Source: Candidatus Poribacteria bacterium (GTDB lineage Bacteria; Poribacteria; WGA-4E; JAJDTR01). From it: a DNA stretch of 64,000 nt. Below the pieces are notes generated by a model. It was not told the origin of the DNA. It saw only the letters and a list, made by a program, of their open reading frames with translations, and searched no databases. Positions 11,216-19,193 of this stretch are shown here, piece after piece. Location: contig CBDCTK010000002.1 of NCBI GenBank assembly GCA_965222225.1, forward strand, positions 1,248,001-1,312,000. The letters are read 5' to 3'. A program made the translations under genes and the position numbers. Position 1 is the first letter of the stretch, and each line of letters starts with the position of its first letter.

Positions 11216-12235
11216 ATGGAAAAACAAAGTCATGCTCGGTCTGGGATGCAGAATCAATTCTCACGTTCCATCCTCCCGTTTTTTGATTACCTGATAGTTC
11301 TCCGCCCCACCCTCCTATTTCCTGTCTGGACACTCGTACTTCTAGGACATTATCATGGAACAGCGCACATCTCTCATTCCTTAAAATTTGAGTTTCTAGC
11401 TGCTGAAATTCCAATCTACTTGAATTTGGACGCTCGCGTCTGGGTTACGCTTTGCTTGTACTCAATGTTGGCAAGTGCCGGTTATATCATAAACCAGATA
11501 GCAGATAAAGAAACGGATTTGGCAAATGACAAGCTATATCTGGTTGCCAACGGATACGTAAAACTACCGCTGATTAAATTGGAGGCGGCTGCATTATTTC
11601 TTGCCTCGATTGTGTGGGCGGTTGTGTGGTTTCACCGTAGTTGGGCATATCTCGCGCTGATTGCACTATCCACTGTTCTGGGGGTGATTTACTCCGTCCA
11701 ACCGTTTCGATTGAAAGGCAAACCGATACTTGACCTTCTGGCAAACGCGATTGGATATGGGGGTATAGCATTCCTTCTCGGATGGGCGGCAACCGCCAAA
11801 TTAAACGCAGAAGCGCTACAGCGAGCTATCCCTTACATGTTCTGTGTCGGAGCCGCTTTTGTTAATACAACGCTTCCGGATCTGAAAGGAGACTCGGCGC
11901 ATGGCGATCGAACAACCGGAGTTTTATTGGGCGTGCGGCGAGCGTGTCAATTGAGTCTATTCCTCTTGGTCATCGCAATACTGTCGGCGTGGATTGTCAA
12001 AGATGCCATTGCGCTTATTTCCGGTTTGGTCTCCGTTCCGTTCTTCGTATACATGAACATCACGCCGAAACGGCAAGCTATCATTCTGGCAACTCGTGTC
12101 GGCATCCTTATGCTCTCGCTTGTTGCTTGCATTCTCATTCCGCCCTATTTCATCTTATTCGGGTGTGCCTTGCTATTTGTTCGTTGGTACTACAGCGCTC
12201 GATTTGACATCGTATATCCCGGCTCTAAAGCATGA
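11216..12235 (+). CDS. UbiA-family prenyltransferase
   Basis: LRP, NQIADKETDLAN, YSVQPFRLK, LPDLKGD; multiple TM helices. Confidence 0.85.
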   Translation: MEKQSHARSGMQNQFSRSILPFFDYLIVLRPTLLFPVWTLVLLGHYHGTAHISHSLKFEFLAAEIPIYLNLDARVWVTLCLYSMLASAGYIINQIADKETDLANDKLYLVANGYVKLPLIKLEAAALFLASIVWAVVWFHRSWAYLALIALSTVLGVIYSVQPFRLKGKPILDLLANAIGYGGIAFLLGWAATAKLNAEALQRAIPYMFCVGAAFVNTTLPDLKGDSAHGDRTTGVLLGVRRACQLSLFLLVIAILSAWIVKDAIALISGLVSVPFFVYMNITPKRQAIILATRVGILMLSLVACILIPPYFILFGCALLFVRWYYSARFDIVYPGSKA

Positions 12236-12308
12236 TATTCAAACTCAAAACCCTCTTAGGTATCACGGTCATGCACCCATTTCACGCCTTGCGCATTAAA
12301 GTAGAAGA

Positions 12309-13169
12309 ATGTCTTCGTCAGTAGCGCGACTATGCGCTATTCTAGAACTCTCGCGCCCAGCTAATGGTGTTATCGCTTTTGTCTCGGTTATGCTAGGCGG
12401 GCTTTTCGCCGTCAAGGGACAAATAAATCGCCTTGATGATGTTGGGTTGTTGATGGCGGCATTTTCCGCACTACTACTCTTGGCGGCGGGCAACAGCCTC
12501 AATGACTACTGCGACTCTGAAATTGACCGCACCAATAAACCTCGACGCCCAATCCCTTCGGGGCGGATTCAGCGGAGAGAGGCCTTAATCGCCGCCATAC
12601 TCTTAATGGGAGCCGGAATAACGCTCGGGTGTCTTGTCAATCGACACATAGCGATAATCGTTGTGGGCGTTTCCACAAGTTTAATCGGCTATGCACTCTG
12701 GCTCAAACGCACCCCGATGATTGGAAATCTCCTTGTAGGCTTTCTCACCGGACTGACTTTCATCGCGGGGGGTGCGGTTTTTGAGTCCTTTCGAGGGACA
12801 CTTGTACCGGCGACCTTTGCACTCCTGTTTACCACAGCGCGTGAGATTGTCAAAGATATTGAAGACACTGAAGGTGACTTCAAAAACAACGCGAACACAA
12901 TCGCGGTCATCAGCAAATCTGTGGCTGCCTTGATAGCTTCAATTTTTATGGGAACTGTTATCCTATTTAGTCCGGTTCCATATCTGTTGGGCTGGTATTC
13001 ATGGCGTTACATGCTCATGGTTTTTATTGGCGTTGATCTGGTTCTAATGTACCTCCTTGTTCAACTCTGCAAAGATGCCTCAAAAGAAAATAGTTTGCGT
13101 ATCCAGAAGTGGATGAAGTGGGACATCTTGGTCGGACTCGGTGCAATATGCGTTGGCGACTTTGTATAG
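12309..13169 (+). CDS. Digeranylgeranylglyceryl phosphate synthase-like (UbiA family)
   Basis: RPAN, GNSLNDYCDSEIDRTNKPRRPIPSGRI, LKRTPMIGNL, AREIVKDIEDTEGD. Confidence 0.85.
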   Translation: MSSSVARLCAILELSRPANGVIAFVSVMLGGLFAVKGQINRLDDVGLLMAAFSALLLLAAGNSLNDYCDSEIDRTNKPRRPIPSGRIQRREALIAAILLMGAGITLGCLVNRHIAIIVVGVSTSLIGYALWLKRTPMIGNLLVGFLTGLTFIAGGAVFESFRGTLVPATFALLFTTAREIVKDIEDTEGDFKNNANTIAVISKSVAALIASIFMGTVILFSPVPYLLGWYSWRYMLMVFIGVDLVLMYLLVQLCKDASKENSLRIQKWMKWDILVGLGAICVGDFV

Positions 13170-13199
13170 TACAGCGTAGTTTTCGTAGGTTTCTGACAA

Positions 13200-16975: not shown

Positions 16976-17194
16976 ATGATTCTAATTAACGAAGAACTGT
17001 GCAGCTATTGTGGGGCATGTGTCGCTGTCTGCCCGGAAAATATCATCGATTTAGTTGACATTTATCTGAAAATAGATCAATCGAAGTGCACCGACTGCAT
17101 GCGTTGTGTTAAAGGTTGCCCGGTTGGTGTGCTTGCTCTGGAACGCAATGGTAAGGTATATTATCCAGCATATGAAGGGCGGGGATTATTTTAA
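16976..17194 (+). CDS. 2[4Fe-4S] ferredoxin
   Basis: [12 protein letters not shown] and [17 protein letters not shown] overlap with next gene. Confidence 0.93.
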
Positions 17195-18386
17195 TGTTCC
17201 ACTCCGAGTTTGATGTTATTGTCGTCGGTGCTGGCCCGGGAGGTTCGATTGCCGCGAAGGTTGCCGCCGAAAATGGCTTAAGTGTTCTGCTCTTGGAGAA
17301 ACGCCAAGAAATCGGTTCCCCCGTTCGCTGAGCGGAAGGTATCGGCACAGCGTCGCTGTGTGAATTTATTCAGCCGCATCCATCTTGGATATCCCAGCAG
17401 ATCAACGGCGGCCGACTGTTTTCGCCTAACGAAACAGCAGCTACACTTGACTTCCCGAGAGCGGGATATGTGCTTGAGCGCAAAGTCTTCGATCGCATAC
17501 TCGCGGAGATGGCAGGAGATGCCGGCCCGAGTTGCTAGTGAAAGCGAGGGTAACTACGGTCACCAAGTCGGACGACGGAGTAGTCAACGGCGTAACCTTC
17601 CGTCATTCTGGTCGTGATTACACCTGTAAAGCCAAAACGGTGATTGCCGCAGATGGAATTGAATCGCAGGTTGCGCGTTGGGCGGGAATTGATAGTACTC
17701 ACGATTTGCGCGATGTGGATATCTGCGCCCAATATTTGGTTTCAAACATTGACATCATTCCGGATCACTGTGACTTCTATGTCGGACGCGAGATTGCTCC
17801 ACGCGGATACATCTGGGTTTTTCCAAAGGGGAAAAACATTGCCAATGTAGGCGTTGGCATTGGGGGCGCCATATCCGGAAAGGGCGGCAAACTCGCCATT
17901 GATTACTTGAATGAGTTTGTAAAACGAAAATTCCCCGATGGCAAAATCTTGGCTCAAGTCGTCGGCTGTGTGCCAGTCGGCGATAGCCTACCCGACATAG
18001 TTGGCGATGGAATCCTCCTAATAGGTGATGCCGCACACCACAGCGATCCCATCTCCGGCGGCGGAATCGCTAACGCAATGTACTCAGGTCAATTCGCAGC
18101 AGAAGCCGCAGTCGAGGGAATCCGAATCGGCGATGTTTCCGCCAAGACTCTTAGCTCCTATGAGAGGCGTTGGAACAAACAAATAGGGAAGCATTTCAAG
18201 CATATATGTCGTATACGTGACGGGCTGTTTAAGTTCAGTGATGACACGTTTGATAGGTGTGCTGAAGTCATATCGAAAATGCCCAGTGAAAAAGTTACCA
18301 TGACACAAATCTTCAAAACCGTGTTAAAACACCAGCCCCGATTACTGTTGGAATTAAGACATTTGGTTCTGGCGGGCTGGGTTTAG
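17194..18386 (+). CDS. Geranylgeranyl reductase (archaeal DGGR-like); in-frame TGA at 17329-17331 (putative Sec) and one-base frameshift near 17527
   Basis: [71 protein letters not shown]. Confidence 0.88.
17345..17361 (+). promoter_or_regulatory. Putative bacterial SECIS hairpin of GGR
   Basis: GCACAGC-GTC-GCTGTGT stem-loop; G-first loop begins 21 nt after the UGA. Confidence 0.6.
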
Positions 18387-18422
18387 TAAGGATGCAGCGC
18401 TTAGAACGTTGGCATTTGGTGA

Positions 18423-19193
18423 TTGAACCGAATCATTCCTATTATAATGCAATCTGATTTTGTCCTCAACTATCTTCAAGAGACCATTACGAGATATAAA
18501 GCGGGATATTTAGTTCTTATCGATCCCGATCAATACTCCGTCTCGGACTGTGTCGAATCAGCTCATCAAGCAGAAGATGCGGGTACCGATGCACTTCTTC
18601 TAGGTGGCAGCTTTCTGACTACCGATCTCCAACCCGTAGCGGAGACCCTGAAAAGAGAAACACGGTTACCAATCATCCTCTTCCCCGGCGACGCAATGCA
18701 CCTAACGCCTCATGCGGACGCCATTTTATACCTCAGTCTTATAAGCGGGCGGAACGCCAACTTTCTAATCGGAGAGCAGGTTAAGGCTGCGCCTAGGCTA
18801 CGACAGTACGGTATTGAATCGATTCCAACGGGATATATGTTGATTGATAGTGGTCGCCAAACATCGGTTGGATTCATGAGTGGGACAACGCCATTGCCCC
18901 GTGACAAGTTCGATCTCGCTTGGGCGCATGCTCTTGCCGCTGAATATCTCGGTATGCAGTTGGTCTATCTCGAAGCCGGCAGTGGAGCAGAATATCCCGT
19001 CCCTGATCGGATGATTGCCGCAGTGAAGGAACACATCAGTATCCCGGTTCTTGTTGGCGGTGGAATCACTACACCTGAAATTGCTGCTCAAAAAGTCGAA
19101 GCCGGTGCAGATTTCATCGTGACAGGTACGGCCATCGAAAATAGTCGCTCTTTGACGGTGATGAAACAGTTCGCCGACGCGGTTCACGGGTAG
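18423..19193 (+). CDS. Geranylgeranylglyceryl phosphate synthase (group II GGGPS/PcrB family)
   Basis: LIDPD, LGGS, LFPGD, SLISGRN, TGYMLIDSG, YLEAGSGA, VGGGI. Confidence 0.92.
   Translation: MNRIIPIIMQSDFVLNYLQETITRYKAGYLVLIDPDQYSVSDCVESAHQAEDAGTDALLLGGSFLTTDLQPVAETLKRETRLPIILFPGDAMHLTPHADAILYLSLISGRNANFLIGEQVKAAPRLRQYGIESIPTGYMLIDSGRQTSVGFMSGTTPLPRDKFDLAWAHALAAEYLGMQLVYLEAGSGAEYPVPDRMIAAVKEHISIPVLVGGGITTPEIAAQKVEAGADFIVTGTAIENSRSLTVMKQFADAVHG

Follow-up and report, generated by a model that had tools for sequence, protein, structure and literature searches.

A putative archaeal-type ether-lipid gene set in Poribacteria with a predicted selenocysteine-containing geranylgeranyl reductase

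Can a bacterium that carries an outer-membrane assembly operon also hold a gene set for archaeal-type ether lipids? The question is raised by a stretch of 64,000 nucleotides (called the window here) from a Candidatus Poribacteria bacterium, a symbiont of sponges (assembly GCA_965222225.1, contig CBDCTK010000002.1, positions 1,248,001 to 1,312,000 of the forward strand). In this window, bamA, skp and lpxD are followed on the same strand by two genes of the UbiA prenyltransferase family, called UbiA1 and UbiA2, and then by genes for a ferredoxin, a geranylgeranyl reductase (GGR) and a geranylgeranylglyceryl phosphate synthase (GGGPS). We compare the locus with curated protein families, with known structures and with related genomes; the genome of the window, G000, comprises 5.70 Mb in two contigs and is 94.87% complete. 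The reading that we favor, with a probability of about 0.62, is that the window holds a conserved archaeal-type ether-lipid gene set of Poribacteria, that the GGR of its order would be a selenoenzyme, that the GGR of this particular genome would be broken, and that UbiA1 would be accessory.

The gene for the predicted maker of the first ether bond, GGGPS, is located at 18423-19193 (+) and is present in a single copy in G000. Its product lies above both curated NCBIfam cut-offs, with 289.7 bits for NF003198 (cut-off 247) and 218.7 bits for TIGR01769 (cut-off 161.55). The closest structures in the PDB are 4JEJ (4.7e-55, 190 bits) and 4MM1 (9e-54, 186 bits), and the group I/PcrB structures are matched at only 1e-6 to 1e-9 (31 bits for 2F6U, and 33-41 bits for heptaprenylglyceryl phosphate synthase, HepGPS). 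The division of these PDB entries into group I and group II is the one that we presume to apply. The protein is assigned to group II on the basis of these matches, and the corresponding identification in the first-pass annotation is thus borne out by the two cut-offs and by the closest structures. Among the ten top GGGPS clusters, five carry an organism name, and the nearest of these named clusters are bacterial (Anaerolineae, Ignavibacteriaceae and Emticicia).

For the second ether bond, the candidate is UbiA2, a protein of 286 amino acids encoded at 12309-13169 (+) and recognized by the Pfam UbiA family at 138 bits. Its top NCBIfam models are of the digeranylgeranylglyceryl phosphate synthase (DGGGPS) type, NF009523 and NF009521 being the best-scoring ones despite bits below their cut-offs. 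UbiA2 can be aligned with the DGGGPS of M. jannaschii (6M31) over residues 6-283 against 6-279 at an E value of 1.7e-36, with both Asp-rich motifs in register. These matches suggest a DGGGPS-like prenyltransferase. The first-pass annotation had described the gene in such terms, and the description holds for the full-length match and its motifs; it does not extend to the two equivalog cut-offs, the values of which are given below. The same annotation had named a grouping of the UbiA proteins with quinone or heme prenyltransferases as an objection. For UbiA2 the genome speaks against this, since among its five UbiA-family genes both the MqnP/UbiA-like quinone prenyltransferase (TIGR01475, 311 bits, cut-off 181) and the heme O synthase (283 bits, cut-off 210) are separate genes located elsewhere. 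A third DGGGPS-like UbiA paralogue is found far from the cluster, at C2:420518-421441 (+), with 130 bits for NF009523.

The two genes are widespread in the phylum, with GGGPS found in 144 of the 176 Poribacteria genomes that were scanned (107 of the 133 high-quality ones) and UbiA2 in 143 of the 176. Their counts are equal in the genera that are large or provide the contrast, namely g6 (1/20), g13 (0/1), g3 (33/40) and g9 (62/65), and the two scans differ in a few small genera. The neighborhood is also conserved. Ten loci found with GGGPS are 69-94% identical to it, the same surroundings were seen in ten loci of relatives, and around GGGPS the neighborhood recurs in 80 Poribacteria loci. An alignment scan with GGGPS kept 80 loci of 439 relatives, which were all from Poribacteria or from bacteria without an assigned name (identity of at least 63%) and gave no outgroup information. 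As the same neighborhood recurs in relatives, the gene arrangement is not due to chance. The commonest order, seen in 26 of the 80, is BamA>Skp>LpxD>UbiA2>SpoU>GGGPS>GrpE>DnaJ>PrmA, where SpoU stands for a methyltransferase gene described below. GGR is present in 16 of these 80 loci, and in 14 of the 16 it is accompanied by the ferredoxin and has both of its halves. In family f4, a compact arrangement LpxD-UbiA1-UbiA2-Fdx-GGR-GGGPS is found (Fdx, ferredoxin), and three further loci (L080, which is the same record as L031, L168 and L166) have UbiA2-Fdx-GGR-GGGPS without SpoU. Judged from gene content, the core is GGGPS plus UbiA2, and the ferredoxin-GGR pair and UbiA1 are accessory modules. The first-pass annotation had pointed to bacteria of the Fibrobacteres-Chlorobi-Bacteroidetes (FCB) group for comparison; the host belongs to Poribacteria, which the NCBI taxonomy lists among the candidate phyla outside FCB.

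We now turn to the reductase. The ferredoxin, a protein of 72 amino acids with two [4Fe-4S] clusters that is matched by NCBIfam ferredoxin models, is encoded at 16976-17194 (+), and its stop codon overlaps the start of GGR (17194-18386, +) by one base (TAATG). In the window, GGR consists of two pieces that match NF041160 and TIGR02032, while in the relatives it is one frame of 397 codons. The gene is thus present, as had been annotated, but under translation table 11 it is not a single open frame, since a TGA interrupts it at 17329-17331 and the frame shifts after 17526. Among intact copies, the GGR of a genus relative gives a full-length match at 7e-82 to 3OZ2, the lipid reductase of T. acidophilum, and that of the relative P0001 passes the family cut-off of TIGR02032 (242 bits against 158.8). 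The Pfam domain GGR_cat is found, and the catalytic region of the PxxYxWxFP type is present.

To place the enzyme among its homologues, we used the best 80 GGR loci from named genomes, consisting of 10 from Poribacteria and 70 others, namely 29 archaeal rows, FCB-type bacteria, three Chloroflexota and a few more. A ferredoxin homologue occurs in 71 of the 80 loci, in archaea as well as in bacteria, and mostly ends close to the start of GGR. According to a published study, the GGR of M. acetivorans needs the ferredoxin encoded at its locus (PMC10821996), and the small ferredoxin of the window is presumed to be the electron donor of its GGR. In the tree of the 80 rows (quick IQ-TREE search, LG+C20, with a midpoint root for drawing only), the Poribacteria form a clade with an SH-aLRT support of 100 that is joined by the three Chloroflexota at 83. 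These two groups together with the 29 archaeal rows are split from 38 FCB-type rows with a support of 100, and the archaeal GGRs that group with the poribacterial one are of the methanogen type.

The in-frame TGA at 17329-17331 (+) occupies the position of the catalytic Cys47 and aligns with the active-site cysteine of 3OZ2 and 3ATQ. In the study on M. acetivorans, this cysteine is described as essential for catalysis (PMC10821996). At the conserved Cys47 the window thus has a TGA codon, so that cysteine itself is not present and selenocysteine (Sec) would be its functional analogue. In a first sample, TGA was found in 20 of 20 loci, i.e. G000 and 19 relatives, in the context P-V-R-TGA-A-E-G. 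The wider scan for GGR covered the 176 genomes, among which the order of the window is represented by four GGR-bearing families. All matches from the order that cover residue 46 have the TGA, that is, 39 relatives and G000; one of the relatives has an additional TAG (G135), and another is truncated at the end of its contig. The 13 GGR matches from seven other Poribacteria families that cover this site are all free of a stop codon there, with cysteine in its place. Among the best 80 named loci, all 10 from Poribacteria have TGA, compared with TGT or TGC in all 70 others, and cysteine stands at the site in all aligned full-length database homologues.

Bacterial pairs of Sec- and Cys-containing proteins are known, formate dehydrogenase being an example, and in the selenoproteins a selenocysteine insertion sequence (SECIS) hairpin directly follows the UGA. 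A SECIS-like hairpin with a 7-bp stem and a 3-nt loop is present at 17345-17361 (+). It begins 13 nt after the TGA, and the first nucleotide of the loop is an invariant G. Across 27 distinct sequences, 97.9% of the cells are paired, and three of the seven pairs have double compensatory changes (19 cells) that alter the encoded residues yet keep the pairing. None of 500 shuffles reached such a value, the slid controls pair in 8-62% of cells, and RNAalifold recovers five of the seven pairs. An Rfam scan of 13000-19500 with E values up to 1 gave no match, and hence no curated SECIS or other RNA in that region.

The codons in front of the TGA are under constraint as well. For the 39 upstream codons, the nonsynonymous divergence (dN) is 0.04-0.17, while the synonymous divergence (dS) is saturated or 0.9-3.4; dN/dS could be computed for 4 of 10 pairs and ranges from 0.04 to 0.09 among them, synonymous sites being saturated in the other 6. 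The GxGxxG motif that binds flavin adenine dinucleotide (FAD) is located in this upstream stretch, and since these constrained codons hold it, a start after the TGA is implausible. The genome has the machinery for selenocysteine, with selA (524 bits), selB (343 bits, cut-off 242) and tRNA-Sec contiguous, and selD (364 bits, cut-off 125) apart from them. The selD gene, at C2:2933348-2934274 (-), itself has one in-frame TGA, as would be expected if SelD is a selenoprotein. We also considered a global reassignment of TGA and rejected it, as TGA is the ordinary stop in 6 of 17 genes of the window. On the strength of codon, hairpin and machinery taken together, the GGR of the order is predicted to be a selenoenzyme in which the UGA at Cys47 is read as Sec with the aid of the downstream hairpin. 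Among the papers listed in our searches, none links GGR with selenocysteine. Public gene calls of the clade are N-terminally truncated at the UGA (284-346 amino acids), which means that surveys of annotated proteins undercount or mis-size the GGR of Poribacteria.

The second irregularity of the gene is of a different kind. At 17526/17527 (+), the window reads GGC-CC where the relatives read GGC-G-CC, so that one base is lost after 17526, behind codon 111. The frame then ends at a TAG at 17536-17538, and what is left is a frame of 284 codons (17532-18386) without the FAD-binding N-terminus. The frame is kept in 19 of 19 relatives. We checked the deletion on the assembled contigs of four sequencing runs, X1 and X2 being two runs of one study, and X3 (an RNA library) and X4 (DNA) coming from two other studies. 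For X1 and X2 (99% of sampled words shared, word depth 77-85), the contigs agree with the window and no variant was seen, whereas those of X3 and X4 carry an additional G after 17526. The deletion is present in the reads of the X1/X2 population and has not reached fixation among close strains. A contig of 2204 nt from the RNA library X3 spans 16900-18480, which is a weak sign of expression, as a carry-over of DNA is possible.

Apart from this base, the gene is free of decay and shares 93-95% identity with its genus relatives, which means that any inactivation would be recent. With the frame lost, the saturation step in this genome is probably dead, and the products would stay unsaturated unless another reductase acts. 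In this genome, the one-base deletion that frameshifts GGR casts doubt on the saturated isoprenoid lipids that the first-pass annotation had envisaged. Breaks are seen in relatives too: UbiA2 is split into two frames in G003, the GGGPS of G008 has a TAA, and the GGR of G135 is the one with the extra TAG. A locus resembling genus g2 (L029/L165) has a C-terminal remnant of GGR only and no ferredoxin.

What, then, is the role of the other prenyltransferase gene? UbiA1, located at 11216-12235 (+), encodes a protein of 339 amino acids that scores 70.8 bits with the Pfam UbiA family. No NCBIfam model matches it at cut-off, the best reaching 53 bits and the DGGGPS models 21-45 bits. In the PDB, it matches nothing but two sequences of chlorophyll a synthase, each at 2e-4, and it has no match to the DGGGPS structure 6M31 at an E value of 0.01 or better. 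The motifs of its family are N-Q-x-x-D-x-x-x-D and P-D-x-x-G-D, the first Asp of motif 1 being replaced by Gln throughout the family. Look-alikes proposed by a language model are UbiA clusters of WOR-3, Fibrobacterota and Zixibacteria. Among the 70 non-poribacterial loci, 6 (L119, L122, L129, L137, L139 and L152) have a homologue with 28-31% identity directly upstream of the ferredoxin-GGR pair, the hosts being Neomarinimicrobiota, Calditrichaceae, KSB1 and other bacteria, and across these loci the UbiA1-family gene, the ferredoxin and GGR form a conserved module of three genes. Within the order of the window, UbiA1 was found in 22 of 71 genomes. By motifs and neighbors, UbiA1 is classed as a distinct, accessory UbiA subfamily that travels with ferredoxin-GGR in several FCB-type phyla.

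A complete route would need further enzymes from elsewhere in the genome. In the pathway that we propose, the methylerythritol phosphate (MEP) pathway and a short-chain polyprenyl synthase would supply geranylgeranyl diphosphate (GGPP), the group II GGGPS would form the first ether bond to glycerol phosphate, and the DGGGPS-like UbiA2 would form the second. The ferredoxin-GGR pair, where present, would saturate the chains, with the ferredoxin as electron donor of the FAD enzyme. In place of CarS, which is absent, the route would have to rely on the bacterial CdsA and head-group enzymes. The genes for Dxr (483 bits) and CdsA (188 bits) adjoin each other in G000, and HMG-CoA reductase was not found. 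A GGPP synthase had been noted as missing, which is correct for the window; elsewhere in the genome there are two polyprenyl synthases, one of which scores best on IdsA/GGPP-synthase models, below their cut-offs. Concerning glycerol-1-phosphate dehydrogenase (G1PDH), four PF13685 matches are found in G000, namely aroB, two iron-containing alcohol dehydrogenases and one G1PDH-like gene (C2:2300119-2301198). We rejected the latter. Its best NCBIfam model is G1PDH, at 82.8 bits against a cut-off of 413, and its best PDB match, 5FB3, reaches 1.7e-13 with glycerol dehydrogenases close behind. The G1PDH-like gene adjoins a galactonate-dehydratase-like (sugar-acid dehydratase) gene and is unlinked to the pathway. 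Its phyletic pattern in the 71 order genomes, moreover, is opposed to that of GGGPS (f1 10/10, g6 18/20; f2 0/27, f4 0/7, g4 0/4). A glycerol kinase is encoded at C2:774182-775651 (+) inside an open frame of 1091 amino acids, possibly as a fusion.

The canonical bacterial route is represented only in part. G000 has three PlsC-type acyltransferase domains; PlsY and PlsX were not found in it, and GpsA has no clear match there (22.8 bits only). PlsY (PF02660) is missing from all 158 genomes of the order and from all 8 of family f8, whereas the 9 genomes from six other families all have it. In a scan of the 176 genomes with PF01210 (E up to 1e-15), GpsA is present in 36, among them g6 (20/20), g13 (1/1), g4, g5 and most outgroups. 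Two families that mostly keep GGGPS and UbiA2, f1 (0/10) and f2 (0/112), are without GpsA, and 20 of the 21 genomes of g6 and g13, all of which have GpsA, are without GGGPS and UbiA2. GpsA and the GGGPS/UbiA2 pair may thus be complementary, in a pattern produced by few independent events. Since g6 has neither PlsY nor, in most cases, GGGPS, another acylation route must exist there. One of the PlsC-type domains (C2:3580601-3580987, -) lies inside an open frame of 1443 amino acids, which by analogy might be an ElbD-like alkyl-ether lipid enzyme, such as is reported for Poribacteria in a 2026 preprint.

Several alternative explanations have to be weighed, two of which concern the reading of GGR. 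If the TGA were a true stop, the gene would be a pseudogene or would start later, and no selenocysteine would be involved. The public annotations, which cover only the part after the TGA (284-346 amino acids), agree with this. However, a protein begun after the TGA would miss the FAD-binding fold, the codons before it with their GxGxxG motif are strongly constrained, the TGA is kept in all 39 covering relatives from four families, and the hairpin covaries. Non-poribacterial homologues have cysteine at the site, and the Sec machinery of the genome is complete. A true stop is consequently extremely unlikely. The missing G, on the other hand, could be an artefact of sequencing or assembly, with GGR intact in this genome. 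X1 and X2 share one study and may be the source data of the assembly, the comparison was made with contigs and not with raw reads, the rest of the gene is undecayed at 93-95% identity to the genus relatives, and similar single breaks occur in other long assemblies of the genus (UbiA2 in G003 and GGGPS in G008). Yet the independently built contigs of two runs, at a word depth of 77-85, agree with the window, and the GGC-G-CC context is not a long homopolymer. We regard an artefact as rather unlikely, and a genuine break of GGR in this genome as the better explanation.

The other two alternatives concern the product. The genes could serve to make a minor, non-bilayer isoprenoid glyceryl ether, similar to the PcrB product of Bacillus and acting as a signaling or outer-membrane lipid, instead of bulk membrane. 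CarS and G1PDH were not found, GGR is patchy (56 of 176 genomes), 19 of 20 genomes of g6 live without GGGPS and UbiA2, and the site beside bamA-skp-lpxD could point to a role in the envelope; the function of bacterial GGGPS and DGGGPS is left open by Coleman et al. (PMC6431249). The tight co-occurrence of the DGGGPS-like UbiA2 with GGGPS is, however, unlike the single-ether system of Bacillus, CdsA is present, and bacterial enzymes process archaeal intermediates in E. coli, as reported by Villanueva et al. (PMC7852524). A minor lipid is on balance somewhat unlikely. A much less probable option, which we consider very unlikely, is that the enzymes salvage or break down archaeal lipids from archaea residing in the same sponge, with the reactions reversed or used for remodeling. 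Such a possibility was raised for bacteria without G1PDH by Coleman et al. (PMC6431249), and G000 is without G1PDH. The MEP pathway and the polyprenyl synthases, however, provide a de novo isoprenoid supply, and synthesis is the better fit for a reductase that uses up reducing power. To our knowledge, there is also no support for a reversal of prenyl transfer, which counts against salvage.

It is important to note that a number of observations weigh against the interpretation of the locus as a functional archaeal-type gene set with a broken selenoenzyme. UbiA2 stays under both DGGGPS equivalog cut-offs (221.5 bits against 269 for NF009523 and 206.3 against 296 for NF009521), and the intact GGR of P0001 misses the equivalog cut-off of NF041160 (308 against 780). 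The presence of GGR in just 56 of 176 genomes of the phylum implies that saturation is dispensable or done in another way. The genomes compared are kin, so that counts of co-occurrence overstate independence, and since X1 and X2 come from one study that is possibly the source of the window itself, the deletion is without independent confirmation. The absence of CarS, already remarked on for the window, extends to the whole genome, PF01864 having no match in G000 (94.87% complete, two contigs). The absence of G1PDH likewise held up in a genome-wide search, which gave one G1PDH-like gene that is below cut-off and unlinked, and no credible G1P dehydrogenase was found in G000.

Taken as a whole, the observations of the first-pass annotation are partly confirmed and its interpretation is partly supported. 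The mixed membrane that the first-pass annotation had proposed for this bacterium is an inference. A more far-reaching version would be that archaeal-type ethers make up a substantial share of the cytoplasmic membrane of sponge-associated Poribacteria, that they were gained separately from FCB, and that one order has the first selenium-dependent membrane-lipid enzyme. The eroded canonical route (PlsY in 0 of 158 genomes, no PlsX in G000, and GpsA in 0 of 122 genomes of f1 and f2) fits a substantial membrane share; this version as a whole is less likely than not, and we put it forward only tentatively.

The remaining features of the locus are as follows. Upstream of UbiA1 lie bamA (5840-8443, +; Pfam Omp85 and POTRA), skp/ompH (8513-9094, +; Pfam OmpH), lpxD (9179-10234, +; Pfam LpxD and Hexapep) and a polysaccharide deacetylase gene (10212-11189, +; Pfam Polysacc_deac_1, 87 bits) that overlaps the end of lpxD. 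The bamA-skp-lpxD block stands ahead of the lipid genes throughout the order. The deacetylase is outside the core lipid set, and it is missing in L083-L085 of family f4, in which UbiA1 comes right after lpxD. Between UbiA2 and the ferredoxin, there is a gene for an RNA 2'-O-methyltransferase like SpoU/RlmB with a long N-terminal extension (13200-14561, +; Pfam SpoU_methylase, 122.6 bits), which scores 121.7 bits with TIGR00186, under the cut-off of 160. It stands inside the cluster in most of the order, and no lipid role is assigned to it. Downstream of GGGPS, hrcA-grpE-dnaJ-prmA follow from 19310 (+). The genes named in the first-pass annotation are thus where it had placed them, on the plus strand, with Pfam and NCBIfam support; it had overlooked the deacetylase, the SpoU-like gene and a gap of 2.4 kb.

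This gap (14562-16975) resembles an insertion and is rich in repeats, being a patchwork of short repeats with copies scattered over the genome. An element of 42-49 nt at about 14652-14700 has dozens of copies in the genome according to blastn, and several pieces of 70-200 nt recur as well. In genus relatives, SpoU and the ferredoxin are separated by anything from about 150 nt to 4.3 kb. The gap contains an orphan open reading frame of 204 amino acids (15003-15617, +) with an internal duplication of about 253 nt at 76% identity, which matches neither a Pfam nor an NCBIfam family and has neither another copy in the genome nor a counterpart in the relatives. A scan of 9000-19500 for promoter and terminator consensus sequences gave numbers near the shuffled expectation (20 against 14.7 and 12 against 10.3, respectively). 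Five genes past GGGPS, at 23664-24452 (+), there is a gene of the broad PhyH (phytanoyl-CoA dioxygenase) family that is kept there in genus relatives.

How does the locus relate to known systems? The closest is that of Cloacimonetes and other FCB bacteria. Villanueva et al. (2020) found that GGGPS and DGGGPS from Cloacimonetes are active in E. coli, and that CarS and G1PDH are likewise missing (PMC7852524); the survey of Coleman et al. (2019) has GGGPS plus DGGGPS in 12 of 12 FCB phyla (PMC6431249). The poribacterial system is similar in that a diderm has group II GGGPS, a DGGGPS-like UbiA, GGR and CdsA but no CarS or G1PDH. It differs in its host, in the Sec-for-Cys GGR, in the fixed site beside bamA-skp-lpxD and in the second, divergent UbiA, and its GGR falls on the Chloroflexota/archaeal side of the 80-row midpoint-rooted tree, unlike the FCB GGRs. 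With the archaeal GGRs (3OZ2, 3ATQ and that of M. acetivorans), it shares similarity over the full length, a TIGR02032 score above cut-off and the abutting ferredoxin gene; the UGA/Sec at Cys47, the missed equivalog cut-off, the bacterial host and the frameshift in G000 set it apart. The PcrB/heptaprenylglyceryl phosphate synthase of Bacillus belongs to the same PcrB/GGGPS superfamily and also forms an ether bond to glycerol phosphate, but the HepGPS structures match weakly (1e-9 to 3e-7, compared with 5e-55 for group II), and the GGGPS of the window is accompanied by a second prenyltransferase and a reductase.

Similar considerations apply to selenocysteine. As in known Sec/Cys pairs, there is a UGA at the catalytic cysteine, there are orthologues with cysteine, a downstream hairpin has a G in its loop, and selA, selB, selD and tRNA-Sec are present; the GGR family differs from those pairs in being a lipid-saturating flavoenzyme. 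In the literature, we found no relevant paper that names Poribacteria with GGGPS, two broad evolutionary essays aside, although such hits may be listed in the supplementary tables of Villanueva et al. (2020), of Coleman et al. (2019) and of the 2026 preprint on ether lipids of sponge symbionts. The latter deals with fatty-alkyl routes (elb, agps, ger and mss). Homologues of the tetraether synthase Tes have been reported for 10 of 29 Poribacteria metagenome-assembled genomes from the Black Sea (PMC11868695). What is new here, as predicted from the sequences, is an archaeal-type ether-lipid gene set in a further phylum, with a Sec-bearing GGR.

Bacterial GGGPS and DGGGPS are the main natural evidence for mixed membranes, and this evidence has hitherto been based on FCB bacteria; Poribacteria would be a second, unrelated phylum. 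The case is testable, with genes that are near-universal in the phylum and fixed by the outer-membrane assembly operon, and with natural lineages that have or lack GGR and that have or lack GpsA. If the assignment is true, Sec at Cys47 of GGR would constitute a new selenoprotein family, and the Cys orthologues of the sister lineages would provide a natural Sec/Cys pair for examining the role of this residue in flavin-dependent double-bond reduction.

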